The notes under the pieces are model-generated. The model ran no database searches. It was not told the origin of the DNA and saw nothing but the letters and a program-made list of their open reading frames with translations. Shown here piece after piece: positions 3,369-49,426 of a stretch of DNA of 64,000 nucleotides. Origin of the DNA: a virus; IMG/VR virus record IMGVR_UViG_3300036715_000875, positions 10,884-74,883 of that record; one strand, given 5' to 3'. The first letter of the stretch is position 1, and every line of letters starts with the position of its first letter. The position numbers and the translations under genes were made by a program.

Positions 3369-3643
3369 ACCTACTATTAGAGGCTAACTCAGATAGTCTA
3401 TTTCTATGGCTCTATGATTATAGAACCGAAGACTATATGAAAGCTTCATTTATCCTCTCTTTAAACCAACTGAAAAAAGCCGCTTCCTTCAAATTGGAGA
3501 TGACCAACAGCGCGCTTTATGATAAGTTCTTAATAATAGCAAAAGCATTTGGTAATGAAGTTAAAACGAACGATAGCAGAGCAGCCAGTAGGCTTCCTCC
3601 AGCGAGTTTTGAAGGTCTAGCCACATTTTTAGGGAGTATGTAA
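3006..3643 (+). CDS. Tail assembly chaperone, -1 frameshift product (gpGT-like, about 212 aa; includes listed ORF 3437-3643)
   Basis: The -1 frame is open from the T9 run (TTT CCA GAA TCA...) into ATG 3437 and on to TAA 3643. Confidence 0.75.
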
Positions 3644-9600: not shown

Positions 9601-12600
9601 ACAGGCCAGCGATTAGTCTATAGTGATATTTTAGCCCCGTCGTCTAAGTTCACTAAGTCTCTAGCTCAAGTAGGTATAACTAAGAAACAAATGGGTGAAA
9701 AGTTTGATGAAGAAGGCGTACTTGGTGTCTTGAAGCTGATGCGTGATGAAGGGTATGGCTTTGGGCAAGCAACCTCTGGTATGGAAGTTCGTGAGAAGTC
9801 CGCCTACTTAACAGTAGCGGGGCAACTTGATAGAGCTAGTAACTTTAGATCAAGTATTATGGGGACTAATGCAGCTGGAGACGCTAATAAGGTTCAAATG
9901 TCTTCTCTAGCTAATCAAACTAAAAATATGTTTAACTCTTGGGGTATTGCACTAGATACTATGGCTGGAGATAAGTTATCCTCTGTTGGAAGATTCTTTG
10001 AAGCTATTACATATTCTCCAAATAAGACTAATAACTTACAAGTTGGAGCAGGAGTAGACTACTATAAAGAGACCCAAGATGGGATTAATGGAGGAAACTC
10101 TGGAGTAGGCGGAGCAATTATTGGGGGACTAGCTATAGGTGGAGCTGGATATGCCTTACATAAGTTTGCTAAGAATAACCCAGGTGGAGGCCTAGGTAAG
10201 ATAGGGAGTAAACTCTACTCTCCTCCTATAGAAGGTGGAGGGTTTAAAACCGCTTCAGGTGGGTTCTTTGGTGGGGCAGTAGATAAATTTAAAGGCTTAT
10301 CAGTAGGGGCAAAAGCAGGTGGAGCCTTAGGTATATTAGAGACTGGGTATAACTTAGTTCAAGCTAGTCAGTCTAAAACACCAGTTAGAACATTTATTCA
10401 GGATATGATGCCAACCTTAATAGGCATAGCTACTGCGGCTATAGCAGCCCCTCTTCTAGGCTTAGGAGCAGTTGCAGCTGGGGGTGTAGGAATCGGTGCA
10501 AGTTTATTAGGTGGGTCAGCTCTTAAAGGTAGTACTGATAAGGCTGTTGATAAAGTAGGTAATTTCTTTGGGACAGACTGGGGCAAGCCAACAGGTAACG
10601 AAATTCTACAAGACGCTGGAGCTCGGTTAGCGGGAAGTAAGTCTACTCTTAGTGACTTATATAAATACGAGAACGCTGTAGGTAAGGCAAAAAATAACCC
10701 TTTAAGAGATGGTAAAGACGCTACAGAGGCAGATAAGGCTATTACTAGGTCTAATATAACTAAGCAGGGGTTACAATTTAATGAGTCATTTAAGGCTGAA
10801 ATAGACCAGCTAGAGAAAGCAACTGGCCAAGTAACAGACTTCTCTAATGCAGGAAGTGCTGATGAGTTACAGAGCCAGCTTAAAAGCTTTAGAAAAAGCT
10901 TTAAAGAGAATATAGTAGTCAAGTCATTTAAACCTATGATGGAAGCTTTAGAAAAGACTTCAGCAACACCTATAGAAGACCTTACAGGTAAAACTGTAGG
11001 AGATGCTACTAAAGCTGCAGAGAGTAAGATAGGCTCTACACTTGCTAACTTAGCAACAGTAGCACCTGAGTTGCTTCTAGCTCAAGGTAAAGAACTAGAT
11101 AAGGTAACTAGAAAGTATTTTGCTGGAGCTCTTAAACAGGATACTAAGCTACTCCAAGATAAGCTAGCTGGAGAAGTCTCTAGTGGTGAGATAACTAAAA
11201 CTGAGAGTGGTGCTAAGTATATTAAGGAAAAAGCAAAGCTAACGAATGAAAATACTAAGCGTGAAAAAGCAGTACTTGATAGTAGACGATCTGAAGCATT
11301 GACAGGGTATGTTAATCTTAACTCTTCAGATGAGGTAATGAAGTATGTAGCTGACTTGAAAGGAAACACTGCAAAAGGGGCTATTAGAACAAAAGCTGAA
11401 GTAGCAGATAATAAGTTCACACAAGCTGAGTTTGCTAGTATTGAAAAAGGTTCAGCTACTCAGTACCAAAGACATAGAGAAGAAGAGACTGGGATAGATA
11501 AGATTAAAGCTCAGGTTGTTGAGTTAGTGAATCAGACAGATGAGATTAACCAAGCGTTTAAAAGTTTCTACAAAGATACTATATCTCAAGTTGGCCAGCA
11601 AGCAGTAGACCTAGGAAGAAAGTTTGGTAATACCATGCTTAAGGAAGCTTCAAACCTTGGTAATAGCAATTGGGGTGATACAGCTGGGCTACAACATACT
11701 CTAGGGAGTATGGCAGTAAATGGCCTAAATGAAAAGTATATGAAAACTAGCCCAACAGACCTTGAGTCTAAGAGTGTTATTAGCCTACTTAATAAAAATA
11801 TTAAGTTTAATACTCTTGGAGCTTTACAAGCCGGAGGAAATCAAGCTGGAGCTAAAGAGTTTAATGCTATGCTAGCAGCTGAGCCAATTGCAGCAGCTAT
11901 TGCAGATATGCCTTCTACTCTTGAAGGTTTAATTAATAAGCATGGACAAGATCCATTTATGCTTAAGCAGTTTAATGCTAGAAAAGATGCCTTAGAGAAT
12001 AATGGTATTAATAGAAATGTTGATATTGATGCTCTTAAAGGACTAAGCTTCGAAAATATTCTGGCTATGTCAACTAAGCAGAAAGAATCTATAGTTGACC
12101 CGCTAGCTAAAAAGAAGATGGAGACTAGTAAGAATTTTGAAATTTATCAGCTTGATGCTAAATATGCCTCAATCAAAGAAATGCAAATTGGTGGTAAGAA
12201 TATTTCTGAAAATCAGTCTGAAAAAGGCTATGCTCTAAAAGAGAATCATAGGCAGTATGAGTTAGGAATAGCAGCATTCAATAGAAGTCAAGAGTTCCAA
12301 AAGACTCAGTTGATGACAAACTATTCTAGAAATATAAGGGACTTTAGCGCTAGGATAGACTTCCAGCGCCAAGAAATGGGAATAGGTTTTGCTCAGTCAC
12401 AAGCAGCAGCTCAAAGACAATATGACTTCCAACAGACTATGATAAGGATGCAAGCTGGATGGGCAAAAGCTGATGCGTTAAAAGGGTCAGGAGATAGTAA
12501 AGATGATGCAGGTAAGAAGAGAGACTATGCTATCCAAGACCTAAACCTAAATACTAAGTATAAGACTGAGGATGTTAATAAAGACTTCTCTAGAACAGTA

Positions 12601-14751
12601 GCGCAGCTGAATACAAGCCTTACTAGACAGATAGATGGCATTGATAGAGCTATGCAGTTCTCTAGAGATATGTTTAACCGTAGTATGGATAAGCCAGTTA
12701 ATCTTACCCTTAATCCAGCAGCCTTTTTAAAAGTTGCGGATAACTTGAATGATAATACTCTAGCTCTAGATGCCCATAAAGCAGAGCTAGGTGCTAATAC
12801 TACAGCTATCCAGCAATTAGTAGGTCTTCAGCAAACTAAAGAATCTTTAGTAAAAGACGCTTATAAGTATGCTTATAAAAGTGTAGGTGGCGCAGTAACT
12901 AATGAAGATGGGACCACAAGTGCTAAGTTTACTGAGATGTATGATAAATATATGCAAAATAATAGTGGGCAGTTATTAGATACTGTATTGAATCAGGCAA
13001 TGAATAAAACTTTCGCTGGTGCAGGCTTTGATGCAACTAAAGCTCTAACAGACTCTAACTATATTGCTCAGTCAGTTGCGAATCCTGGAGAATCAACTAC
13101 CCCTGCAGGTATTATGCAAGGTAGCGGATACTCAGTAGAAGACTTTGTTAATGCCCTATTTAAGGATGGTAGTGGTGAAATCCACGTAACTACATCTCAA
13201 GGGGTAGTACTTGAAGCTCAAGGTAACTTGGCTGGAGCCTTATTTGATTTAGAGACTCAGATGGTAAGCTATCAGAATCAAATATCTGAGGTAGGTATAG
13301 CTTTCTCTCAGAATATGGAGGACGCTAGACTATCGCTTAAGTATTCTTTAGATGATATAGCTACCGCTTATCAAAGAGGTCTTGATGCTATCAATACAGC
13401 CTATGCTAGAGATATTGAACAAATTAGTGATTCTTTACAGCGCGCTATGGAAGCTATCTCTACTAACCTGGATAGACAGGCAGAGTCAGCTGCTTTACAA
13501 CATCAGTTCCAAATGCAAGAGGCTGCTATACAGTTCCAGCAAGCTTTAGAAGCTCTATCTAGACAAGAGGCATTTAATAAAGCACAAATGGAGCAAGGGC
13601 TTAAAGATGCTCTTACTGACTTAGCATCAACAGCAGAGTTTAAACTTGGGGAATCGGCTATAAATAATGACCAGAATATAATTAGTATTAACGATCAGTT
13701 CGGCAGGCTTATAGAAAAGCTTGACTTACAAAAAGAAGAAAACATTAGAGCTCTTGAGCAACAGTATAATGATACTCTATCTAAAGTTATAATAGATGCC
13801 CAAATAATGCTAGAGATGTTTAATAGATCATTAAAGGCTGCATTAACTGAGCAACTACCAGATCTAGCTTATGCAGTTAAGTCTATTGAAGGAGGGATAA
13901 ATAAAGCTGCAACTGAAATGGACTGGAAGTTTGCAGGGGCAATTAAAGCTATCTCTGAAGGCTGGGATAAGGCATTCAAAGATGATGCAACATCTAAGGC
14001 TATTAGAGAACTTGGTGGGGCTACTCTTAGATCAATAGTTGACTCTATGGGTAAAGACCAAGATACAACTATTAAGGATGTCTGGGCTAAGTATGATGAG
14101 CCTATTAAGAACGCCTTTAAAGCCTCATATGACTCATTAGCAACTAATGTACAAACAGCGGCTACTGAGTCAGGAAAGAAAATTGTAGAAGCGGCAGCTG
14201 TAGTTCAGCAAAACTCAGTAGCACTAGACCAAGCATTAACTAAATTAACCACTTTTGGTGAAGCTAGAAGCTCTGACTTAACAAATATGACAACAACGCT
14301 AGCTAGTTTAGCAAGCACAACTATAAATGCTATGTCTACAATGGCTACACAAATAGCGGCTGCAAGAGATTCTATAGCTCGTGCAGCATCAGCTGGAACA
14401 GGATATAACACTGGAGGGGCAATACCAGGGTATGGTGGAGGAGACTCAGTCCCAGCTATGCTAGAACCTGGTGAGTATGTACTACGTAAAGAGGCTGTAA
14501 GGTCTTTAGGAATAGACTATGTGGCTGGACTAAATAATTCAATAGTCGGGGCTAAGCTTGGTGATGGATTGTCATCAATATCTATCAAGAATGTAACAAG
14601 TTTACCAACGCAAGCCACAGAGGCTAAAAGTGGTGATAGTAATATCTCAGTAGGTATTTCAGTTCATCCAGAGATGACTATTAGGTCTATCCAGGATAAT
14701 ATAGAAAAGATTGCTGATGGGGTTCATAAAGTATTTCAGGAGTATATGTAA
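3643..14751 (+). CDS. Giant tape measure protein (3702 aa)
   Basis: TP901-type TMP core near 9100-9900 (TKFSAGEIADAATVLGQAGFS); Gly/Ala hydrophobic segment; coiled coil; C-terminal TGGAIPGYGGGDSVPAMLEPGEYV motif. Confidence 0.92.
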   Translation: MEFNARDLIGQIMGIKNAQDATQVRARLNSLKGKVTDTQYNQLTNALESKTKNMPSNPIGRQSNVDLNSLQWGTPNIVQQANELKRSAALEQLALDKQVAMDNLIAKTTDHGRSITPNKPNNSRYKPLNPAVAPYSTLTKDTSISWEVNEFLTRYFTQKSGLSADTQWKAFVRGSSMPKGMQYNSNLEQQVLQEVKALEDRLGGSNQAKQHFSGMSYQSTVREIEGVKVALNTAFSNDKKTALLFALDKGNEDTLSKSLAQMFSLYKGLEKIEVATKSGVKTFTRDSNIISGPTTDNLLQGKAKLAQNANRLKKDHIGTTNYYKPTQAAKTTYENTQAELQAIALKQLEDLSKTAVATMPVGVLEKFLAHTKVKDLKKYGSYFGDQFSKLAQYSLSDNNTLSQTLSPEQVKNIRLATARNRAEEYAVHARAAQKQTVNLGSELGVSKKAIITEASKNLGRDTTKHLEALHAINSFFTESKHDAIAYARQTGSKETNPQALFDKKYPERIGFLDLMKSSRPEVYKSAVSMLMANKNNRTWLESRGLLAENTANPILNLKGLVQEKFTRVLARSISDNPNSIDGRMDPELLNLLSSKALGHANKIFESERNVASPVGALAVKKFEGRLIDNLNDMVEGQKFAKVYNSAGFTQVVNKTLMGDIDLGDTVANRAEQQEKLQQESSRIFSDMIKNHEGKVKVQALEQMKQQAHEQAMFNLGLDSDGMQIETLSLKEKFFGAQSQVNIGKLLKAKNLDKVNSSKLSEFDQLQIKMAKGTMTIEDHKNLMDTAAALGIGNSSNFGSIGGLQKIIKGLREGQYEFNALTVEGKADLSSPRIHISKELRKSILEGFSSDPKINKQQLAEYNKLGLYNEVDGRLEVSKIMKTASESTLMMVKGSPEDKKTRQYLTEYFAGLDVDQLTVGEKKRAVAIHTALASGAAVTQKMVDIRKNAQVKADPHNMIENMYNTLSLDPKNAQYTTLKASQHSILRKKSELTDQALQNMLKYDSVKQFYNNPEVAGKVDGFYASVPVDGAETNKLISRLGEFGTLETSKLRDFRGMKLNDKLNLVGKALHIKYLDSLGTDANGNKVHTARSIAYSSAMNKLSGDIASLTSGQVGRTAKLDIVSKLRGTPVASLVSQKYLENEMANTIAFAHLNTGGDRKFQLGDIVDDLSKARLKAEALTNIERDFGIHREGLGAVQYPFKALAGQGTTELRASRLSMLDSLSNASPLGGQFYDSIDLDPGALGYVAKSTREVAINNHKRNLATSALMKGRQVELPSEEPRLRPFIRAAREGKVKFSATDLLELAKHVPFLRLATGGKIPGKGHVDEVPALLMKGEMVVDRATTESLGIHTNSDYKRFKQAIANGKVKHFAEGGMTDEEKQKIQDALLSQGISLESAAKILESSVGKAPGARLGESVLSLGDEPEYNHTPAAVAVDNGVKPKAPSALKAINTDTIAKKTESANAFRELTNQLKRGTILDAATMLSPKNLLELEQAHGSGFVSKLKPYQELVANSGSLSKVDSIESILSVNNSSSLGADQAAILKKISSSKAQTLNIKERTDSANADFVSNMNNTAMNELAEMWKDPRKAKNMMSRVLEAETTATNPKTVKNVSDMKVKMTELMLGSSYGEVTDALRKGDTSTLSPLGRAALDGLSSNSQQLQDFKKVATPDIAEGVHKYSGAKDDGLTNAMKLVNNNLTEVSKILRTEAKPITNRAEFNQFIGEVLKNNADGGFTAANVDGGAKGAAKAKDMFNTLKGGIDKNQDFDSYHSMGEMGRQAESVQRIKESSQMRWANFKDLMVQNTAFAASYAVLGGATSSIVGATQFIVNLDEKMKNLQAITGSTTPEVAKMASTIKEVSTQTKFSAGEIADAATVLGQAGFSAQDISESLGGVVKLATATGSSLDEATQTLTSALTIWDAPMKASESYANEFTAAINKSKLDINSLGMALQYSGSIAAEGGIPVEDLVTVTSLMKDAGVKSASTSGTGQRLVYSDILAPSSKFTKSLAQVGITKKQMGEKFDEEGVLGVLKLMRDEGYGFGQATSGMEVREKSAYLTVAGQLDRASNFRSSIMGTNAAGDANKVQMSSLANQTKNMFNSWGIALDTMAGDKLSSVGRFFEAITYSPNKTNNLQVGAGVDYYKETQDGINGGNSGVGGAIIGGLAIGGAGYALHKFAKNNPGGGLGKIGSKLYSPPIEGGGFKTASGGFFGGAVDKFKGLSVGAKAGGALGILETGYNLVQASQSKTPVRTFIQDMMPTLIGIATAAIAAPLLGLGAVAAGGVGIGASLLGGSALKGSTDKAVDKVGNFFGTDWGKPTGNEILQDAGARLAGSKSTLSDLYKYENAVGKAKNNPLRDGKDATEADKAITRSNITKQGLQFNESFKAEIDQLEKATGQVTDFSNAGSADELQSQLKSFRKSFKENIVVKSFKPMMEALEKTSATPIEDLTGKTVGDATKAAESKIGSTLANLATVAPELLLAQGKELDKVTRKYFAGALKQDTKLLQDKLAGEVSSGEITKTESGAKYIKEKAKLTNENTKREKAVLDSRRSEALTGYVNLNSSDEVMKYVADLKGNTAKGAIRTKAEVADNKFTQAEFASIEKGSATQYQRHREEETGIDKIKAQVVELVNQTDEINQAFKSFYKDTISQVGQQAVDLGRKFGNTMLKEASNLGNSNWGDTAGLQHTLGSMAVNGLNEKYMKTSPTDLESKSVISLLNKNIKFNTLGALQAGGNQAGAKEFNAMLAAEPIAAAIADMPSTLEGLINKHGQDPFMLKQFNARKDALENNGINRNVDIDALKGLSFENILAMSTKQKESIVDPLAKKKMETSKNFEIYQLDAKYASIKEMQIGGKNISENQSEKGYALKENHRQYELGIAAFNRSQEFQKTQLMTNYSRNIRDFSARIDFQRQEMGIGFAQSQAAAQRQYDFQQTMIRMQAGWAKADALKGSGDSKDDAGKKRDYAIQDLNLNTKYKTEDVNKDFSRTVAQLNTSLTRQIDGIDRAMQFSRDMFNRSMDKPVNLTLNPAAFLKVADNLNDNTLALDAHKAELGANTTAIQQLVGLQQTKESLVKDAYKYAYKSVGGAVTNEDGTTSAKFTEMYDKYMQNNSGQLLDTVLNQAMNKTFAGAGFDATKALTDSNYIAQSVANPGESTTPAGIMQGSGYSVEDFVNALFKDGSGEIHVTTSQGVVLEAQGNLAGALFDLETQMVSYQNQISEVGIAFSQNMEDARLSLKYSLDDIATAYQRGLDAINTAYARDIEQISDSLQRAMEAISTNLDRQAESAALQHQFQMQEAAIQFQQALEALSRQEAFNKAQMEQGLKDALTDLASTAEFKLGESAINNDQNIISINDQFGRLIEKLDLQKEENIRALEQQYNDTLSKVIIDAQIMLEMFNRSLKAALTEQLPDLAYAVKSIEGGINKAATEMDWKFAGAIKAISEGWDKAFKDDATSKAIRELGGATLRSIVDSMGKDQDTTIKDVWAKYDEPIKNAFKASYDSLATNVQTAATESGKKIVEAAAVVQQNSVALDQALTKLTTFGEARSSDLTNMTTTLASLASTTINAMSTMATQIAAARDSIARAASAGTGYNTGGAIPGYGGGDSVPAMLEPGEYVLRKEAVRSLGIDYVAGLNNSIVGAKLGDGLSSISIKNVTSLPTQATEAKSGDSNISVGISVHPEMTIRSIQDNIEKIADGVHKVFQEYM

Positions 14752-34828: not shown

Positions 34829-35250
34829 AATTCAAATTTTATTTCATACTTATACTTAGCCAGCTCTTCCCATTTCCATGATGCAGCTGGTGACTTAAAC
34901 TTATCCATAACTATAGAGAATGGTACAAAGTACCAAGATTGTGTAGGAAGGTGGTGGAGGATAAACATACTTCTCCACCCAGCCTTAATATAGCGCATAG
35001 CAAAACCAAGCTGAGAGCCAGATATGTTCTTTAATGGAAATCGTATAAGGTCTACTGAAGATTTAACTTCAACTAGCCAGGGCTGACTTCTCCAAGTAAT
35101 ATAGTAATCACTAGGAGCTGGCTGTACTAGATTACGAGCATCAGAAGAGTCAGTGAATCTACCATAGATAAACTCATGATTAGCTTCCATAATACATTTT
35201 AGATGGGCTAAATACTCTTTTTCAGAAGGCTTACCGTTATTTTTTGACAT
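34816..35250 (-). CDS. PD-(D/E)xK nuclease, RecU/Holliday-junction-resolvase-like
   Basis: GK..E, PSDY, VEVKS, I..SQ pattern. Confidence 0.75.
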   Translation of the reverse strand: MSKNNGKPSEKEYLAHLKCIMEANHEFIYGRFTDSSDARNLVQPAPSDYYITWRSQPWLVEVKSSVDLIRFPLKNISGSQLGFAMRYIKAGWRSMFILHHLPTQSWYFVPFSIVMDKFKSPAASWKWEELAKYKYEIKFEFWRH

Positions 35251-35692
35251 ACTCATACTCCAGGTAGCTACCACAGTCTATATTGTTAGCTAACTCATAA
35301 CCATTTAAAAAGTCAACCGGAAACGTATACCCTGAATTAAGTTTAGCCATAGCTTGATGGATAATAAGTTTAGCTGGAGAATATTTTTTAAATGTCTCAA
35401 CGCCTCCAAAATTAACTTCAATAGCTAGTGGACTAAGATCATCCAGCGGATTAACTGAGGCTACATTTTTAAACCCGTAGATTCTATCATACGTAGGAAC
35501 ATACCAAGTCTTAGCTAAAGCTAACAACTTTGGGAACTTAGAGATAGTCATAAATGTGCTATACCCCACAAGAACTGTTTTACCTGTAATGAACTCTTTT
35601 ACCCACTGCTTATCTTTAGCTGGACCCCAAGAGACGTCTCCAGTATCATCTGCACAAAACCAGTCACTACTAACTAGCATAATTCCAATCAT
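35237..35692 (-). CDS. folA: Divergent dihydrofolate reductase
   Basis: VSWGPAKDKQW (Trp/Asp27 region), TGKTVLVGYSTF (cf. MGRKTF), FGG motif. Confidence 0.75.
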   Translation of the reverse strand: MIGIMLVSSDWFCADDTGDVSWGPAKDKQWVKEFITGKTVLVGYSTFMTISKFPKLLALAKTWYVPTYDRIYGFKNVASVNPLDDLSPLAIEVNFGGVETFKKYSPAKLIIHQAMAKLNSGYTFPVDFLNGYELANNIDCGSYLEYEYVKK

Positions 35693-35997
35693 ATCTTATC
35701 CTTACCTTGGGGAAACTCTACCCCAAATTTATGTTTCAAGACTATGACAATAGCCTTGAACTGTTCGCGTTGTTCTAGAGTTGGGCTCTTAAGATGAATA
35801 CCTTTTTTCCAAGCGTCAGCTAATCGCCACTGTTCAATAAACTCATACTCACTAACTAAAGGGTTACTTTTATAGGCCGCTGGAATTCCTGTACCTTTTA
35901 GTGTGCTAAAGTTAAGAGTACTTTTAAATGAAGTTTCCTCTTTAATCTCTTTAGTAGTCTTTAGACCAGACAAGTTGATCTTTCTACCTTCTAGCAT
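35689..35997 (-). CDS. Hypothetical protein in the nucleotide cluster
   Basis: 102 aa, AAGGAG RBS, overlaps both neighbours. Confidence 0.6.
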   Translation of the reverse strand: MLEGRKINLSGLKTTKEIKEETSFKSTLNFSTLKGTGIPAAYKSNPLVSEYEFIEQWRLADAWKKGIHLKSPTLEQREQFKAIVIVLKHKFGVEFPQGKDKI

Positions 35998-36392
35998 GTT
36001 ATCTCCTTAACGTCAATGAACTTCTTACAATGTAATAATACCATAGGTTCTTTCACTAATCCTCTAAAGATTATTTTCTGAACCCCAAATTGGACTAAAT
36101 GCTTAGCGCAGTTTTCGCAAGGGAAATAGTTAATATACAAGGTTGAACCTTGTATATCATTAATATCTCTGGCATTAGCTATGCCATTCATCTCTGCATG
36201 TATCACCCGCCAATGCTCAGTCTTACCTTCAGAATCTTCACAGCAGTTGCTATCGCCTTTGATAGTGCCATTAACTCCTGTAGCGATTATATGATTATCC
36301 TTGACAAATATAGCCGCTACTTGTTTCTTTTTACAATGAGACTGAGTAGCAAAAATATCTACTAAGTCTAACCAAAATAAATCGCCCCACAT
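35991..36392 (-). CDS. dCMP deaminase
   Basis: HAE...PCENC zinc motif, SHC...VAA...G.NG. Confidence 0.92.
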   Translation of the reverse strand: MWGDLFWLDLVDIFATQSHCKKKQVAAIFVKDNHIIATGVNGTIKGDSNCCEDSEGKTEHWRVIHAEMNGIANARDINDIQGSTLYINYFPCENCAKHLVQFGVQKIIFRGLVKEPMVLLHCKKFIDVKEITC

Positions 36393-36394
36393 AT

Positions 36395-37231
36395 TTACTG
36401 AACTACTTCTGGCTTAGGATTCCAGTCATTAGGCTTATAAGTTAACATAGCATTAGAAGTGACACTAGCTACAAATAGATCTGGATATAAGCGAGCGTCT
36501 TCAATAGTATCCATAAAGGATACTGTCTCATTAGCTTTATTATATGGTGTTATGAGCATTTGACTACACATAACATAGTGATTCTCATAGATATGAGCGT
36601 GTGCTATAGCATAAGATAGCACTCCTACTTGAACCTCTAGTGAGTTAGCAAGTAACTTTCCTAGTAGCGTATACATTAAAAAGTCATAAGGTAGTCCAAC
36701 GATAATATCATTTGATCTTAGGGTTAAATGGATATTTAGTTTTCCATCGATAATATTAATCACCGCTGTATAAGGACAAGGTACGTTCTTAACTGGAATA
36801 ACATTATCTCTACTTGCATCCCAGCTCATTAACACTTGCTGACGAGATGAAGGGTCAGCTTTCAATTTATCAATGATATTAGCGATTTGATCTACTCCAA
36901 AGGCATGCTGCCATCTATAGCCATAAGCTGTAGAAATAGTCCCAGGGTTATTATCATCTTCAAACATTTTCCAGATACCCGTGTACTTACTAATCCACTC
37001 TGTAGACTGTTCGCCACTAAGCATCCAAGCTACTTCTGCAGCTCCTGTCTTTACAAAACTTTTTCTCAAGTGTAGTAAAGGATAGAAGTCCATATCCCAC
37101 TTAAAGAACATTCCATGAAACGCTATAACATTTGTACCAGTTCGTTCATTAAATTGAGAAGTCCCATTATTTAGGACTCCATTAATAGCTTCTAAATAAA
37201 GCTCATCAAAATATGTGTGTACCTTGTACAT
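36395..37231 (-). CDS. Thymidylate synthase (ThyA) family enzyme, predicted dCMP-specific
   Basis: ERTGT, AEVAW, AYG, catalytic Cys152 in PCP, RSND, GLPYD (Asp183 at the E. coli Asn177 position), HIYENH. Confidence 0.9.
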   Translation of the reverse strand: MYKVHTYFDELYLEAINGVLNNGTSQFNERTGTNVIAFHGMFFKWDMDFYPLLHLRKSFVKTGAAEVAWMLSGEQSTEWISKYTGIWKMFEDDNNPGTISTAYGYRWQHAFGVDQIANIIDKLKADPSSRQQVLMSWDASRDNVIPVKNVPCPYTAVINIIDGKLNIHLTLRSNDIIVGLPYDFLMYTLLGKLLANSLEVQVGVLSYAIAHAHIYENHYVMCSQMLITPYNKANETVSFMDTIEDARLYPDLFVASVTSNAMLTYKPNDWNPKPEVVQ

Positions 37232-39145
37232 TTAGTTTCCTTTCGACTGATAGCCACTTAAGGCTTTTTCAATTGCATTAGATATACTTCCAGCTTCAGA
37301 TACTTCTACCTGATCTGCAAAGTTAATACCGACTGATACTGCAGCTTCTAAAGGTAATGAAAACCCTTTAGGTGTATATTCCATGATTTCTACAATCTTT
37401 GGAATATAGAGTTCAGCCATACTACTCTTCATAGAGAAAACAAATTCGTCATGAATAGGAGCCATAAAAGTTATACCAGAGTTAAAGAGTAATTCTTCAT
37501 GGTCTAGTGTAGTCATTGAGAGTTTCATAAGCTCAGAACAGCTACCTTGAACAATTGAGTTAACAACTTTATTCTTGGCCTCAGCTCTAATAGCTTTAAT
37601 TGGGCTCTGCATCTCAGGAAGGTGCCTTGTACGTCCAAACATAGTTCTTACGTATAGATTCTGCGTTGCGAATTGAACTTGCTCATTCCAGTAGTCATAG
37701 AAGTACTTTGAGTAACCATTCTTATGTGCCATCAAGAAAGCTTCAGCTTCAGCTTCATAACAGTTTAGAAGATCAAACTTAGCTAATCGCTTTGGCGATG
37801 CCCCATACAATGCAGCAAAGTTAAGTGTCTTTCCTTTTTGACGAGCTTTCTTAGCGGCGGCATCGCCATTTGCGAGTAGCGCCTTCATCTCATCGTAGCT
37901 AACACCTAAGATATTCGTACCAGAAACGGTATGTAGATCTTTACCTGTATTATAAGCATCGAGTAGCTTAGGGTCTTGTGACAAGTGGCCAGCCATACGT
38001 AACTCAATTTGAGACCAATCTACTGACACAATAATATCTTCGTCTTTTTCATAGTTAGGGATAAATACCTTACGGACTTTAACACCTTCACCGCGCTTTG
38101 AAATCTGCTGAAGATTAGGAGAACCCATAGAGAATCTTCCAGTAACTGTACCAGTCTGTCTTAACTCAGAGTGGATACGACCATCAGGATAGCGTAAGTT
38201 TGGATAGGCTTTATAGTAAAGCTTCTCTCGAGTCTCAACTGCTTTAGCTTCACCAAGTGCAGCTAACATAGGGTGTTCATGCCCATGGTCTAAGACTAAG
38301 TTAAATAAGGTCTCTTTATCAGTGCTTGCTTGGCCAGACTTACCAACCTTAACAACCGGTAGCTTCAAGACATTGAATAATAGATGACTAAGTTGCTTAG
38401 GACTATTAAGGTTAACACCTTGTAAGTCTGGGTGGGCTGATAATAGTTTACGCTCAGTGGCAATGTCAGCTGCTCTAATAGTATCAAGAAGTTCAAAGTC
38501 AACATTCTGACCGCTAATATAGAGCTTGCTCGCAATAGCTGGAATATCCATTTCAAATGTTTCATAGTAATCCAAGTTAATCTTAGAAGCATATAGATCA
38601 AATAGCTTCAGTGTCCAGGTAGCATCTGACATACCATATTCATAGCCTTCTGCCCCTGTTATATCGGCCATACTTCCATCACCGACAGTCTCTTTATAGG
38701 AGGGCATCTCATGATGGAAAAACCGTTTAACAGAAGGCTTAAGGCCCTGAGCCATATTCTCATTCCAGTTTGTACCCATAACCATAGTATCCCATAGTTT
38801 ACCTTTGAGTTCATAACCGTGAAGCTTAAGTAGTGTGTACTCAAATGAGAAGTTGTGTGCAATCCATTCTTGTGATTTGTTGTTATCAAGAATTAGAGGA
38901 AGGTAATCATAACTTAAGTCTCCGTCTTTATGAGCGAAGTTAAAGTACATTTCAATACCAGAACGTGTAGCGAGCTGTAAGCTTGCAATAGCAGAGTTAA
39001 TACGATTAAGAGGTTTAGTCTTCTCAGTACAGTTGTGAAACCAATCTAGCTTTGTGAATGTTTCAAGGTCGATAGACCAGATTTCTTCTGGGCTATCTTT
39101 AAGGATTGCTAAGGCCTCGTTTATATTCGAGCTTGTTACCAGCAT
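37232..39145 (-). CDS. polA: Family A DNA polymerase (3'-5' exonuclease plus polymerase domains)
   Basis: DLET, HNFSFE, TGRFS, DWSQIELR (motif A), KTLNFAALYG (B), HDE (C). Confidence 0.96.
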   Translation of the reverse strand: MLVTSSNINEALAILKDSPEEIWSIDLETFTKLDWFHNCTEKTKPLNRINSAIASLQLATRSGIEMYFNFAHKDGDLSYDYLPLILDNNKSQEWIAHNFSFEYTLLKLHGYELKGKLWDTMVMGTNWNENMAQGLKPSVKRFFHHEMPSYKETVGDGSMADITGAEGYEYGMSDATWTLKLFDLYASKINLDYYETFEMDIPAIASKLYISGQNVDFELLDTIRAADIATERKLLSAHPDLQGVNLNSPKQLSHLLFNVLKLPVVKVGKSGQASTDKETLFNLVLDHGHEHPMLAALGEAKAVETREKLYYKAYPNLRYPDGRIHSELRQTGTVTGRFSMGSPNLQQISKRGEGVKVRKVFIPNYEKDEDIIVSVDWSQIELRMAGHLSQDPKLLDAYNTGKDLHTVSGTNILGVSYDEMKALLANGDAAAKKARQKGKTLNFAALYGASPKRLAKFDLLNCYEAEAEAFLMAHKNGYSKYFYDYWNEQVQFATQNLYVRTMFGRTRHLPEMQSPIKAIRAEAKNKVVNSIVQGSCSELMKLSMTTLDHEELLFNSGITFMAPIHDEFVFSMKSSMAELYIPKIVEIMEYTPKGFSLPLEAAVSVGINFADQVEVSEAGSISNAIEKALSGYQSKGN

Positions 39146-39156
39146 TATAGTACCTT

Positions 39157-39891
39157 TTATTGAAGGATTAAGATTTGATTTGCATCAAGAAAGTCTTGAA
39201 GCGGGGTGTTGATTTTTTCTAACTCATTGATAGAATAGCCATAATATTGCATAGCTAATTTATGAGACATTATAGCATGAGGTGTAAATAAGTCACTCTC
39301 ATCATATTGCTCATCAGATAATAGTTTAGTTAGTATATCCCGCTCATCAGCTGATAGCTTCTGATAGGCTACTTTACCAAACCCCTTCTTACCAGGGATA
39401 TTATCACTAGAGTCACCGACTAGTGTTTTATATAGTAAGATATGAGCTGGATTGGGGCTAAAGAACTTTTGCTCAATCAGCTGCTCATCTACCTTTGTAT
39501 TACCATTGATATATACAGTCACACCATAACCGGTTAAGTGCCATAAGTCTTTATCATTTGAAACGACTACGTCACCTTTCTTCGCTTGGCATGCTATATA
39601 ATCATCAGCTTCTCCACCCTTAACCTCGATCACACTGACACTATCAAAGTGTCTTCCCATGCTCACGATATTATTATAGATAGAGAAATATACAGGGTCG
39701 TCGGTACTACCTCTACCAGCTTTATACCCTTCAAAGATTCCTTTACGGAAGTTTCTAGAGGAAGCTGTATCACAAACCATTTGAATCTTCTTACCTCGAT
39801 GTTTTTCAAGGAGGGCTAAGAATAGCTCATAAGGGTCTCCACCGCCGTGGTAGATTCTCTTAATATAGTTATTAGTATCAATATAGACCAT
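39157..39891 (-). CDS. 5'-3' exonuclease/flap endonuclease
   Basis: YKAGR, EADD, SNDKD, GDSSDNIPG. Confidence 0.93.
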   Translation of the reverse strand: MVYIDTNNYIKRIYHGGGDPYELFLALLEKHRGKKIQMVCDTASSRNFRKGIFEGYKAGRGSTDDPVYFSIYNNIVSMGRHFDSVSVIEVKGGEADDYIACQAKKGDVVVSNDKDLWHLTGYGVTVYINGNTKVDEQLIEQKFFSPNPAHILLYKTLVGDSSDNIPGKKGFGKVAYQKLSADERDILTKLLSDEQYDESDLFTPHAIMSHKLAMQYYGYSINELEKINTPLQDFLDANQILILQ

Positions 39892-40393
39892 CTGGAATGG
39901 CCTTTCCCTTTGTTAAGGTAACACGTTCAATAGTCAACTCAGGAAATCCTTGAGTAAGATAGTGTGCAGCTTTTTCAAAGGCTTGACGGATAGCTTCATA
40001 GCCATGCTTTTCAAATGGGTCGTTCTCATCATAAGGAGCAAAAGGCTTATTTATAACATAGATAATCCGCTCGGGCATATTATCCTTATATACATAGGTA
40101 GTATACAAATGGATAATATCAGCGGGTTCCATATTATTGAGAAGATACCCTTGATAAGCTAGCATAGAAAGAATATCTCTATCCAAGACTATGTTCTTAT
40201 CTTTACTCTCTTCCCAAAACTTTTGGGCATCGGCGAAGAATAGGAATGGGTTATTCATTTCACCAGAAAATATTAGAGGCCTGACAGTTGGTGATGGTAG
40301 GAATCGAAATTCTCTACCAGTTTCTTCTGCCAATGCCTGGGCCATTGTTGTTTTACCACACCGATCAGGACCTTCAATAAGAATTACTCCCAT
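39878..40393 (-). CDS. tmk: Thymidylate/dNMP kinase
   Basis: IEGPDRCGKTT P-loop, LDR..LS..AYQG. Confidence 0.85.
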   Translation of the reverse strand: MGVILIEGPDRCGKTTMAQALAEETGREFRFLPSPTVRPLIFSGEMNNPFLFFADAQKFWEESKDKNIVLDRDILSMLAYQGYLLNNMEPADIIHLYTTYVYKDNMPERIIYVINKPFAPYDENDPFEKHGYEAIRQAFEKAAHYLTQGFPELTIERVTLTKGKAIPDGLY

Positions 40394-40764
40394 TAGTATG
40401 AACCAGCTGCATTACCTACAGCCCCTATTGTCTCTGTGGTTACTGGATGGCCATTATGCCCAACAGTTAAAGTATGCTCTGGGATAACTCCTTGAGACTG
40501 AAGCGCTTCTAAGGCTCGACGTTTTTCTTCACAAGATGAGCAAGGAACCCCAGTATCAGGTATGACTTGCTGAACTTCACCTGCGGTCTTACAGCCTTGA
40601 CATTTATACGCTTCAACAACCTGGGATACCATATGCTCACAAGTTTTAGTTACTCGGGCTACATTTTCATTAAAGATAGCGAAGGCCTCAAGGTCATTGA
40701 GGTCTACTCCTTTAGCTGCGGCCTTTTTATGCATGGCATTCATAATTAGTACATCAATACTCAT
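40393..40764 (-). CDS. Hypothetical protein with two CxxC motifs
   Basis: CQGC and CSSC; coupled ORF. Confidence 0.6.
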   Translation of the reverse strand: MSIDVLIMNAMHKKAAAKGVDLNDLEAFAIFNENVARVTKTCEHMVSQVVEAYKCQGCKTAGEVQQVIPDTGVPCSSCEEKRRALEALQSQGVIPEHTLTVGHNGHPVTTETIGAVGNAAGSY

Positions 40765-41429
40765 TATGCTTTACCTACCATCTCAAATTCTGCAAGAGAG
40801 TAGCGTTGGTTCTGCTTGTTTTGAACACGCTTGACCGAGATTTTTGTAATAACATCTGATGTACGCTCACTATGGTCTTTTTTCAAAGCTGATACGTAAT
40901 CTTTGAATGCGTACATTGATGATGGTGAAAGGCTAATTTTAGTAAGCTTTGGACCTTCTTCAGCGTAGTCCCAATCAAAATAAACTTCATATCTTGTTTG
41001 AATTTTGATCTTGTCTTCTTCACCAGGGTTAGCAGCTTTAGTCTGCATTAACAAACTGTTCATGTTATCACCACCGGTAGAATTGATACCGTCAAAACTT
41101 TCTGCAATCAAGTTAGACTGTGTATCCCACAGCTGCCATACTTTCTTACCACCAGATAGAACAACTTCAATATCTTTATAAGACATCTCAGATGACTTGT
41201 TTAACAACTCAGTACCATCAAGTACAAAGTAAGGCATGAATGAACCGATAGAATCAAGACCCTCAAAGTCATCATTAAAAGACTGAAGCTCACTTGCGCC
41301 TGGACGAGAGACAGCTACTGCTGTTCCACCTGTAACATTCATATCAATAACTGCGTCTTCAACTGGAGTTGAAACATCTAAATCTTTAACACTCTTACGA
41401 GCAACGGGTGTGCCTTTTTCTTCAGCCAT
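40764..41429 (-). CDS. Putative ssDNA-binding protein
   Basis: 221 aa, own promoter and AAGGA RBS, high-expression codons, LSPSS..F..Y / VITKI / Y...F pattern of phage SSB-like proteins. Confidence 0.5.
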   Translation of the reverse strand: MAEEKGTPVARKSVKDLDVSTPVEDAVIDMNVTGGTAVAVSRPGASELQSFNDDFEGLDSIGSFMPYFVLDGTELLNKSSEMSYKDIEVVLSGGKKVWQLWDTQSNLIAESFDGINSTGGDNMNSLLMQTKAANPGEEDKIKIQTRYEVYFDWDYAEEGPKLTKISLSPSSMYAFKDYVSALKKDHSERTSDVITKISVKRVQNKQNQRYSLAEFEMVGKA

Positions 41430-41576: not shown

Positions 41577-42161
41577 TTATAAGCGATGTAGGATGCCAAA
41601 TTTTAGACCTAATACTACCTGATCTTTCTTAGAAAGACCTCTAATGTATTCTAAGACTATCTCAAAGCGTTCATCTTCTATAACATCATCAAGCGTAGTA
41701 TCAAAAGTGCTCGCTCCAAAGTCTAGCTGCTCTTCACTTTCATAGTTAGACATATTTTCTGTACTGAGTCCAAGAACTAGTTCAACTATATGTAACTCTA
41801 TACTAAGTTCAGTAGCTATTAATATAGCTTCTGGCTCGCGTTCATGTGTTAGTAGATACTTATCAATGTACTTATAAATCTTGAGCTTAAAGTTAACTAT
41901 ATGGCTAGGAAGTCTTATAGTTCTAGACTTATTAGTTAAGGCTTCTATGATAGCTTGCTTACACCAGAAGTTAGCATAGGTAGAAAACTTAGTACCAAAT
42001 GATGGGTCATATCGTCTAGCCGCTTTAATTAGGCCAATATTACCTTCCTGTACTAAGTCTTCATATGGAATATTCCTACTGCTATACTGTCTAGCCTTTA
42101 TCTTAGGTATATGTAGATGAGTCTCAATTAGTGTGACTTGTTCAAATGTTAGAGCTTCCAT
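41577..42161 (-). CDS. RNA polymerase sigma70-family factor lacking region 4.2
   Basis: EDLVQEGNIGLIKAARRYDP...KFSTYA..W..QAI, TIRLPSH; ends at LSKKDQVVLGLKFG (region 4.1). Confidence 0.92.
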   Translation of the reverse strand: MEALTFEQVTLIETHLHIPKIKARQYSSRNIPYEDLVQEGNIGLIKAARRYDPSFGTKFSTYANFWCKQAIIEALTNKSRTIRLPSHIVNFKLKIYKYIDKYLLTHEREPEAILIATELSIELHIVELVLGLSTENMSNYESEEQLDFGASTFDTTLDDVIEDERFEIVLEYIRGLSKKDQVVLGLKFGILHRL

Positions 42162-46285: not shown

Positions 46286-46537
46286 CTATTCCCCCAATGT
46301 TTTTTTAACCTCTAGTAACGCTTTGGCTTTAGCCATATTCTTCTTTAACAAGGTTTGATAGAGAAGAATCTTTTTCATGTCAAGTTCAGAGTATAAGGCC
46401 TTCCCAGGTTTTCCTGGGACTTTTCCTTTCACTCCTGAGATACTTAGGTCATTACATAGATTGTAAAGGGTATTTATTTTATACCCACAAATAGCTCCAA
46501 TAAACTCTATTGTATAGGCTGGCTCAGTTGTGTACAT
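46286..46537 (-). CDS. MerR/excisionase-like HTH protein
   Basis: YTIEFIGAICGYKINTL...G...YSELD pattern. Confidence 0.6.
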   Translation of the reverse strand: MYTTEPAYTIEFIGAICGYKINTLYNLCNDLSISGVKGKVPGKPGKALYSELDMKKILLYQTLLKKNMAKAKALLEVKKTLGE

Positions 46538-47066
46538 TGTATAATGCCTTCAATTTAGAGTAGATTTCTTCATAGCCATTACAGTAGGCCATTACATCTT
46601 TGAGATAATAGTTATCTTCTTTACCGGACCAAATCTTGGAGTAAGTTCCATTGCCATAGCCATTTTCTTGTCTAAGAACATTTAGAGCCTGCTTACCTAT
46701 GATAATCTTAGTAACAGCAGGATAGTTGTGCATAACTGTAGCGATAAGGTCCTCAAAACGTAGCTCATGGATTAACTTAATCATAGAAGTTAAGAACATG
46801 AAGTCATCAGAAGTAGCCTCTGGCTGAGCTTTACCTGTTCGTAGCTCTGGACGGTAGTATAGACAATTCATACTAAAAATGGTCATATCGACCAACTCAA
46901 CAACCATATTATCTTCGTCTCTTTCTGAGACTTTCCAGTCATGAAAACCTAGTGAGGCTGTAAACTCTCCCAACTCTTCAATCAATGCTTTGTACATTAC
47001 CTCAAAAGTTGTCGCCTTAGCGTAAGTCTGCTGGAAGTGAACTTGACGGTCAATAATTTTATTCAT
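46524..47066 (-). CDS. dut: Dimeric all-alpha dUTPase (family includes T4-type dCTPase/dUTPase)
   Basis: EELGE, WK, ELVD..F, K..LN..RQ..GY..GTY.KIW.GKEDN. Confidence 0.88.
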   Translation of the reverse strand: MNKIIDRQVHFQQTYAKATTFEVMYKALIEELGEFTASLGFHDWKVSERDEDNMVVELVDMTIFSMNCLYYRPELRTGKAQPEATSDDFMFLTSMIKLIHELRFEDLIATVMHNYPAVTKIIIGKQALNVLRQENGYGNGTYSKIWSGKEDNYYLKDVMAYCNGYEEIYSKLKALYNVHN

Positions 47067-47113
47067 AGGGTTACCTTTTTTCTTTAATGTGATTTCACTT
47101 TGTATACTATAAT

Positions 47114-47156
47114 AAAAAACCGGTGGCATACCGTAAATAACGATACGCTACCGGTT
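47114..47156 (-). terminator. Rho-independent terminator
   Basis: 17-bp stem AACCGGTAGCGTATCGT/ACGGTATGCCACCGGTT (2 G-U, 1 mismatch) ending in a run of 6 T on the - strand. Confidence 0.8.
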
Positions 47157-48939: not shown

Positions 48940-49236
48940 CTAATAATAAATTTCGTGCGCGTGGCGCTGCCAGAAGCCTACTGCTGCAGGTACTGGGTTA
49001 AAAGCTAAGACAATGCGATCAAGCTGAGTTAATAGGCTGCTGGCGATGCCTTGGCCTCTATACTCTTCTTCTATGAAGATATTAAATACCCTCACATGTA
49101 GCTCATCCATTTCAAGCTCGACTATGCCTACGGAATTTAACCCTAAGAATATCTCATACTCTTCTGTGTCTATATCTCCGAGGGCAGTGGCATTTGTCTG
49201 TTGACTACCGAGTTTAACTAATTTTATCAAACTCAT
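48940..49236 (-). CDS. GNAT-family acetyltransferase
   Basis: IFIEEEYRGQGIASSLL acetyl-CoA motif A, N.....GFW. Confidence 0.8.
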   Translation of the reverse strand: MSLIKLVKLGSQQTNATALGDIDTEEYEIFLGLNSVGIVELEMDELHVRVFNIFIEEEYRGQGIASSLLTQLDRIVLAFNPVPAAVGFWQRHAHEIYY

Positions 49237-49426
49237 AATGCCCTCTAATTTTTGCTTGAAAGTACTTACCGTGACTCTCTGCATCCATTAGTTCTGTATA
49301 AGTTTCAAACTCAACTTGGGCGTACTTATAGGTACTACCATTTTTAAACTCAATATATAGAAGCTGCTCATCTTGACTGTAGCCGATAGCTGCGATGTTT
49401 GATGACTCTACTTGTTGTAATTCCAT
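49214..49426 (-). CDS. KTSC-domain protein
   Basis: VESSNIAAIGY...L.IEFKNGSTYKY..V....Y..LM.AESHGKYF...IRG. Confidence 0.9.
   Translation of the reverse strand: MELQQVESSNIAAIGYSQDEQLLYIEFKNGSTYKYAQVEFETYTELMDAESHGKYFQAKIRGHYEFDKIS

Follow-up and report, generated by a model that had tools for sequence, protein, structure and literature searches.

A predicted pathway of the Xp12 type to 5-methyl-deoxycytidine nucleotides in an uncultured siphovirus with a genome of about 75 kb

A four-gene cassette beside the DNA polymerase gene

The stretch of DNA analyzed here (the window, 64,000 nucleotides) corresponds to bases 10884-74883 of IMG/VR virus record IMGVR_UViG_3300036715_000875, a complete siphovirus genome of 74,883 bp with direct terminal repeats. 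Four minus-strand open reading frames (ORFs), abutting or overlapping, make up a cassette in the window that includes a homologue of the thymidylate synthase (TS) ThyA. The gene coordinates, counted from the first base of the window, are as described in an earlier annotation of the same stretch (the original prediction), which did not mention the third ORF listed.

36395-37231, minus strand: ThyA-family enzyme of 278 amino acids (aa), predicted deoxycytidylate 5-methyltransferase (PF00303, 6.7e-47; residue signature; tree)
35991-36392, minus strand: zinc-dependent deoxycytidylate-family deaminase, 133 aa (PF00383, 1.8e-20; phrog_174, 2.4e-35)
35689-35997, minus strand: conserved 102-aa ORF within the cassette (homologues at the same place in relatives)
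35237-35692, minus strand: divergent protein with a dihydrofolate reductase (DHFR) fold, predicted DHFR, 151 aa (profile and fold)

The deaminase start lies 2 nt past the TS stop. We propose that these genes belong to a pathway of the type found in phage Xp12, in which 5-methyl-deoxycytidine (5-methyl-dC) nucleotides would be made and the phage DNA would carry 5-methylcytosine (5mC) for cytosine; the probability of this reading is put at roughly 0.7. Residues, folds, synteny, tree position and the absence of another TS are the observations from which we infer the substrates, the products and the 5mC content of the virion.

Four related viral contigs (L010, L011, L013, and L014; TS identity, 43 to 56%) carry the genes for a Family A DNA polymerase (PolA), TS, deaminase, DHFR-like protein, RecU and Mre11/Rad50 in this order, and the PolA-TS adjacency is kept in each. 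The 102-aa ORF lies between the deaminase and DHFR-like genes in three of the four (L010, L011, and L013); it has no match in Pfam or PHROG and no informative match in the ESM Atlas. A fifth related contig has the order TS, DHFR-like gene, deaminase. In the window and five relatives, the deaminase is found in cis with a TS that has Asp at the position of Asn177 in Escherichia coli ThyA (Asp177). All three of the complete relatives encode a single TS, together with a homologue of the nucleoside triphosphate (NTP) pyrophosphohydrolase of the dimeric dUTPase type described below.

PF00303 matches only once in the complete 74,883-bp genome, which lacks a further ThyA as well as any ThyX or C5 DNA methyltransferase. 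The absence of an Asn-type ThyA or a ThyX, claimed in the original prediction for the window, thus extends to the whole genome. The same applies to the statement that no glycosyltransferase is visible: none was recognized by Pfam, nor was a dioxygenase or carbamoyltransferase, among essentially all ORFs of at least 80 aa, many of which are unassigned.

Residue signature and relatives of the ThyA homologue

The Thymidylat_synt domain (PF00303) is recognized in the 278-aa protein with 160 bits, against a cutoff of 24.3. In phmmer comparisons with the PDB and in a MAFFT alignment, the motif GLPYD aligns with GLPFN of E. coli ThyA, and PCP aligns with PCH. Both changes had been read from the window in the original prediction, along with a retained catalytic Cys152, RSxD, Glu and Tyr, and all of these were found to be real. 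Alignment to E. coli ThyA, which had been suggested as a check on the position of Asp183, places Cys152, Pro153, and Asp183 at Cys146, His147, and Asn177, respectively, with a Cys-to-Asp/Asn spacing of 31 in both proteins (E. coli ThyA numbering is used from here on). Also retained are Glu66 (Glu58), Tyr103 (Tyr94), Arg172-Ser173-x-Asp175 (Arg166-Ser167-x-Asp169), His213 and Tyr215 (His207 and Tyr209), as well as Arg21 and Arg126. The Leu143 position is occupied by Asn149, and the C-terminal tail after Tyr209 comprises 63 residues, ending NPKPEVVQ.

In the same alignment, the enzymes of Xp12 and of phage PaMx74 likewise have Asn143, Pro147, Asp169, and Asp177, with 61-residue tails ending NPKPEVIE and NPRPEVVE, respectively, whereas T4 gp42 has Asp143 and Thr147 and RB69 gp48 has Glu143 and Asn169. 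The enzymes of E. coli and T5 have Leu143, His147, and Asn177. Tails are 55 residues in E. coli, 28 in T4 gp42 and 12 in RB69 gp48. Among 119 database homologues examined, Asn143, Cys146, Asp169, and Asp177 are invariant and Pro147 is nearly so; the signature therefore consists of fixed family characters and not of chance substitutions.

Cytosine-modified metavirome contigs are best told apart by positions 177 and 147, with Asp177 selecting cytosine (PMC8670742). Hydroxymethylases are recognized by an acidic residue at Leu143 and synthases of 5-hydroxy-deoxycytidine monophosphate (5-hydroxy-dCMP) by Asn169 (PMC13326640), and deoxyribo substrates are marked by Arg126 and Ser167 (PMC5175136). 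Two assignments were rejected on residues: a 5-hydroxy-dCMP synthase of the RB69 gp48 type on the retained Asp169 (Asp175), which is Asn in RB69 gp48, and a CMP (ribo) hydroxymethylase on Arg126 and Ser167. A canonical ThyA would need Asn177 and His147, where Asp and Pro are found.

A dCMP hydroxymethylase such as T4 gp42 would hydrate the exocyclic methylene intermediate to give 5-hydroxymethyl-dCMP. Asp177 is common to the window enzyme and T4 gp42, the polar Asn143 might admit water, and the many genome ORFs without assigned function leave room for a hidden tailoring enzyme. However, position 143 is Asn as in Xp12 and not Asp or Glu as in T4 gp42, Aeromonas AS-gz, Xp15, and RB69, and the 63-residue tail compares with 12 to 28 residues in T4-type enzymes. 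For hydride transfer, the site is closed off by the C-terminal tail, which T4 gp42 lacks (PMC6400193). The nonacidic residue and the full-length tail thus argue against hydroxymethylation. In addition, T4 gp42 reaches only 24.2 bits against the window TS and falls in a separate tree group, Pfam scans of the ORFs gave no glycosyltransferase, and hydroxymethylation yields tetrahydrofolate (THF) instead of dihydrofolate, leaving no reason for a conserved linked DHFR. We consider this activity very unlikely. Methylation had been favored over hydroxymethylation in the original prediction because of the linked DHFR, and position 143, the tail and the DHFR-fold protein all point the same way.

The phmmer scores against the window TS are 159.5 bits for PaMx74 and 151.6 bits for Xp12, compared with 98.7 bits for E. 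coli ThyA. In a maximum likelihood tree of 41 sequences, the window TS falls in a clade of 10 entries (support, 99/99) that is sister to the Xp12/PaMx74 clade (98/92; 13 entries jointly), and T4 gp42, RB69 gp48, and Xp15 are separated from them by a long, well-supported branch. The Xp12 TS and five of seven metagenomic Asp177 TSs make 5-methyl-deoxycytidine (5mdC) in vivo (bioRxiv 10.1101/2024.12.05.627091). Given the Asp177 signature, the scores, the tree and the in vivo product of the Xp12 enzyme, the best-supported reading of the window ThyA homologue is that of a predicted dCMP C5-methylase. The natural dCMP C5-methylase suggested in the original prediction therefore finds a likely counterpart in the Xp12 enzyme, which it matches in signature and tree position.

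The cassette could instead serve ordinary thymidylate supply, with the deaminase converting dCMP to dUMP, the ThyA homologue or a host ThyA methylating dUMP and DHFR recycling the folate. A deaminase, a TS and a DHFR are also the classic trio for making dTMP (cd, td, and frd in T4), thy adjoins frd in T5, and the window deaminase is most like ordinary dCMP deaminases. TS mutants with Asn changed to Asp reportedly retain some dUMP activity (Liu and Santi 1992, cited in PMC8670742). Nevertheless, the invariance or near invariance of Asp177, Pro147, and Asn143 in the 119 homologues fits a selected specificity and not a tolerated variant, and the canonical phage enzymes of T5, SPbeta, and Felix O1-like phages all have Leu143 and Asn177. 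As the nearest characterized relative makes 5-methyl-dCMP (tree; bioRxiv 2024), ordinary thymidylate supply is given scarcely any credence.

Three ThyA homologues with Asn143, Pro147, and Asp177 (P0068, P0076, and P0080) are labelled by their sources as belonging to cellular metagenome-assembled genomes (MAGs; bacterium, Ktedonobacterales, and Patescibacteria), which suggests that the dCMP-methylase type is not restricted to phages. Viral contigs L021 (6842-7981) and L022 (6800-8011) encode larger ThyA homologues, of 379 and 403 aa, with Asp143 and Asn147 and a C terminus extended by approximately 100 residues; the two pair as sisters in the tree although position 177 is Asn in one of them and Asp in the other. 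In the Salmonella phage vB_SenS_UTK0009 (Epseptimavirus; L028, 301-1155), a "thymidylate synthase" encoded beside a DHFR retains Asn177, but the positions of Tyr94, Arg127, and His147 are occupied by Gln, Gly, and Met, respectively, which is unusual in a protein carrying the annotation of a normal TS. An enzyme of Caudoviricetes sp. ctXG1253 (L030, 286-1101), annotated as "pyrimidine hmase," has the canonical-type Leu143 and His147 yet carries Asp177, a combination that fits none of the published classes compared.

Deaminase, DHFR-fold protein, and nucleotide pool enzymes

In the 133-aa deaminase (dCMP_cyt_deam_1), HAE and PCxxC zinc motifs align to those of PDB entries 4p9c (dCMP deaminase of cyanophage S-TIM5, 1.1e-19) and 2hvv, and the closest sequences are those of S-TIM5 and bacterial dCMP deaminases. 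Since the sequence is nearer the ordinary dCMP type, a preference for 5mC is drawn from genomic context and the literature. A preference for 5mC is frequent among deaminases encoded in cis with an Asp177 TS, and the sole purified example, mSCD-B5, is active on 5mdCTP and single-stranded DNA and inactive on 5mdCMP (bioRxiv 10.1101/2024.12.05.627091). By analogy, the window deaminase is predicted to convert 5-methyl-dC nucleotides, as mono- or triphosphates, to deoxythymidine (dT) nucleotides. The route from dCMP through 5-methyl-dCMP to dTMP in the original prediction thus stands in outline; its monophosphate level is called into question by mSCD-B5, from which it follows that the deamination step may take place at the triphosphate level.

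The gene next to the 102-aa ORF had been called a DHFR in the original prediction. This was upheld for the fold, although the 151-aa protein has no match in Pfam or PHROG at reporting thresholds, so that its identification required profile and fold evidence. An exhaustive search found 16 relatives, and a profile of 17 homologues matched only DHFRs in the PDB, in register and over nearly the full length (best E value, 0.0032). The AlphaFold2 model has a pLDDT of 95.2, and approximately the top 50 Foldseek matches are DHFRs or DHFR-like proteins (TM, 0.7 to 0.8; probability, 1.00). The catalytic residues Trp22 and Asp27 and the NADPH-binding Gly43, Thr46, and Gly-Gly pair (at about 95 to 97) are invariant within the family and in the alignment with the DHFRs of E. 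coli, T4, Xp12, and PaMx74. In BLASTP, the Xp12 DHFR matches the protein with an E value of 0.069, and the DHFR-like protein of relative L010 has a direct match to E. coli FolA (6e-05). The 151-aa protein is therefore described as a divergent DHFR-fold protein that probably, but not certainly, functions as a DHFR.

Further replication and nucleotide metabolism genes flank the cassette or lie at some distance from it:

37232-39145, minus strand: Family A DNA polymerase, 637 aa (matches phage DNA polymerase I genes)
39878-40393, minus strand: thymidylate-kinase-like P-loop kinase, 171 aa (phrog_761, 4e-17, residues 3 to 161; PF02223, 28.5 bits)
46524-47129, minus strand: all-alpha (dimeric dUTPase-type) NTP pyrophosphohydrolase, 201 aa (PF08761 dUTPase_2, 27.6 bits)

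The PolA gene, whose best relatives reach no more than 31% identity, abuts the TS gene directly upstream of the cassette and is accompanied there by genes for FEN and the thymidylate-kinase-like (Tmk-like) kinase; a RecU-like resolvase gene and Mre11/Rad50 lie downstream. The Tmk-like kinase passes the PF02223 cutoff of 27 and has homologues in relatives L010 and L011, making it a candidate deoxynucleoside monophosphate (dNMP) kinase for 5-methyl-dCMP and dTMP. The pyrophosphohydrolase (PF08761 cutoff, 22.9; phrog_173, 4.4e-10) has the dimeric dUTPase of Campylobacter jejuni as its best PDB match (3.6e-11) and is a candidate enzyme for clearing dCTP and/or dUTP. When T4 gp56 and gp1 were compared with all ORFs of the genome using phmmer, no match was obtained; the pyrophosphohydrolase and the kinase are thus analogues, and not demonstrable homologues, of these T4 proteins.

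The proposed pathway and its known counterparts

In the proposed pathway, the ThyA homologue would accept dCMP and not dUMP, with Asp183 taking the N3/N4 face of cytosine. The methylene of 5,10-methylene-THF would be moved to C5 and reduced by hydride transfer while the C-terminal tail is closed over the site. The products would be 5-methyl-dCMP and dihydrofolate, and the DHFR-fold protein would return the latter to THF. The Tmk-like kinase and a host NDP kinase would phosphorylate 5-methyl-dCMP up to 5-methyl-dCTP for insertion into DNA by the phage PolA instead of dCTP, and the dimeric-dUTPase-type enzyme would probably clear dCTP and/or dUTP. Part of the 5-methyl-dC nucleotide pool would be turned into dT nucleotides by the zinc deaminase, at the mono- or triphosphate level; with dT nucleotides supplied in this way, no dUMP-dependent TS would be needed.

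A number of observations weigh against this pathway. Arg127 is replaced by Gln in the ThyA homologue, the sole change among the catalytic and nucleotide-binding residues tested, and TS identity is low (33.7% with PaMx74; 28 to 31% with Xp12 and PaMx74 in the MAFFT alignment). Two of the seven Asp177 enzymes in the published test yielded no 5mdC, and 5mC selectivity in deaminases is polyphyletic, with no known sequence determinant (both from bioRxiv 10.1101/2024.12.05.627091). The window deaminase is nearer ordinary dCMP deaminases (S-TIM5, 74 bits) than the proteins of PaMx74 (34.8 bits) or Xp12 (17.7 bits). PF00186 gives only 12.7 bits with the DHFR-like protein in the genome search, below the Pfam cutoff of 25. 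By MAFFT, at approximately 21% identity, where the register is uncertain, this protein has Leu56 (next to Lys55) in the column of Arg57 and a His112, conserved in its family, in that of Thr113, both being folate-tail positions. The NTPase looks dUTPase-like and can be only a candidate for dCTP hydrolysis. Finally, palindrome avoidance was taken as a proxy for modified DNA, and across the whole genome palindromes of the restriction type are underused (CATG, z = -10.4; GATC, z = -9.9; TGATCA, z = -8.1; GGTACC, z = -5.9), with GGATCC not occurring at all. With CATG, GATC, and TGATCA remaining under marked avoidance, the phage DNA still appears subject to restriction pressure. CpG is also strongly depleted in the genome (observed/expected, 0.46), and TpG/CpA is not in excess.

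Several of these points would suit a thymidylate bypass alone, in which essentially all 5-methyl-dC nucleotide would be converted to dT and the cytosine of the virion would be ordinary or partly substituted. Restriction-type palindromes remain underused, none of the encoded enzymes is a demonstrated dCTPase, and the genome, with 62% A+T, has a high demand for dT. The same signature also occurs in proteins of cellular MAGs (Patescibacteria and Ktedonobacterales), in which full replacement of cytosine is less expected. On the other hand, Xp12 and PaMx74, which have the same cassette, reportedly replace all cytosine by 5mC (bioRxiv 10.1101/2024.12.05.627091), and pairs of an Asp177 TS and a deaminase are overrepresented in metavirome DNA resistant to cytosine-directed enzymes (bioRxiv 10.1101/2024.12.05.627091; PMC8670742). 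The phage furthermore encodes a kinase and an NTPase of its own, which suits pool replacement. A bypass without cytosine replacement is therefore regarded as unlikely.

The Xp12-type pathway with 5mC in the DNA is best compared with Xp12 itself (GenBank accession number MT664984) and its relatives PaMx74, PaMx28, and AXL1. In Xp12 and PaMx74, as in the window, the gene order is TS, deaminase, DHFR, preceded in those two phages by an NTPase/HAD gene. Members of the group share with the window Asn143, Pro147, Asp169, Asp177, Arg126, Ser167, and a long tail ending NPKPEV-, a single TS, a linked NTP pyrophosphohydrolase and, in the tree, sister TS clades. AXL1 has the same gene set, a functional DHFR and DNA resistant to restriction enzymes with G/C sites (PMC9206674). 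The window differs in that the NTPase is of the dimeric dUTPase type and lies 9 kb off, in place of a HAD/MazG-type gene beside TS, and in its extra conserved 102-aa ORF, far more divergent DHFR family, distant deaminase and Arg127-to-Gln change. It also comes from an uncultured phage of mat and sediment samples with a different backbone, 38% G+C and a 3,702-aa tape measure.

Asp177 TSs with an in-cis deaminase, forming a route to dT via 5-methyl-dC that in one instance runs through triphosphates, were described by Yang et al. (eLife 2021, bioRxiv 2024), who mined IMG/VR, the source database of the window, by exactly the PF00303-Asp177/PF00383 criteria. Like the window, their metavirome systems combine a PF00303 protein carrying Asp177 with a PF00383 deaminase within 3 kb, often beside DNA_pol_A. 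mSCD-B5 has 154 aa and needs triphosphates, whereas the 133-aa window deaminase is most like the monophosphate-acting S-TIM5 enzyme. T4 shares with the window the logic of replacing a deoxynucleoside triphosphate pool: its Asp177 enzyme of the TS family (gp42) works on dCMP, and it has an NTPase (gp56, a dCTPase/dUTPase), a dNMP kinase (gp1), a deaminase (cd) and a DHFR (frd). In contrast to the window enzyme, T4 gp42 is a hydroxymethylase with Asp at 143, Thr at 147, and a short tail, and T4 makes dTMP with a further TS of the Asn177 type (td) and encodes glucosyltransferases; the window phage has no second TS, and no glycosyltransferase was recognized in it. The engineered E. coli ThyA N177D and Lactobacillus casei TS N229D mutants show the single-residue switch at the same aligned position, but the window enzyme family is natural and conserved and has, in addition, His147Pro, Leu143Asn, and Arg127Gln.

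The system described here is thus a new member of an already described one, the Xp12-type pathway, for which a gene-level description was published between 2021 and 2024. As the mechanism and the gene pairing have been published, no new question is opened. What is new is the phage lineage, the sequence type of the deaminase, the additional 102-aa ORF and the strong divergence of the DHFR. The pathway would be extended to a distant, uncultured phage lineage, and the DHFR of such a pathway can evidently be missed by standard annotation. The deaminase adds one more candidate to the 5mC-selective enzymes, a class now used for direct methylome sequencing, from a sequence clade unlike that of Xp12. 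For annotation, a "thymidylate synthase" with Asn143, Pro147, and Asp177 should not carry the label of a dTMP synthase.

A more far-reaching proposal, advanced tentatively and thought somewhat more apt to fail than to hold, is that in a lineage of uncultured 74- to 96-kb siphoviruses from mats and sediments, with tape measures of approximately 3,700 aa, all cytosine would be 5mC and all thymidylate would arise via 5-methyl-dC nucleotides. Three components unseen in the Xp12 group would be used: a DHFR that evades Pfam (His at Thr113 and no Arg57), a deaminase of the ordinary type that independently became 5mC selective, and the 102-aa cassette protein.

The stretch is present in four sequencing runs from mat and sediment metagenomes, as contig-level data in which base modification cannot show, and no near-identical DNA was found in cultured phages. 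The 3,702-aa ORF (3643-14751, plus strand) has as its sole Pfam match a phage minor tail/tape measure domain (residues 1854 to 2048), and its N-terminal approximately 1,800 aa are without assignment; if it is a tape measure, an extraordinarily long tail is implied. An N4-like phage, first suspected from this ORF, was ruled out by the tape measure domain together with a terminase of the lambda gpA type and a portal of the Mu type, both encoded in the genome. Among the replication genes, a small GNAT-type acetyltransferase is encoded at 48940-49284 (minus strand; weak Pfam matches, the best at 8.3e-06). A protein with sigma-70 region 2 (41577-42161, minus strand; PF04542, 5.3e-16) adjoins an SNF2 helicase and a primase and is kept in relatives L010, L011, L013, and L014. 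Between the sigma factor and the kinase lies a 221-aa ORF (40764-41429, minus strand) that is kept in all four syntenic relatives and shows a likeness in the ESM Atlas to Pam3_Gp34, a family of unknown function.

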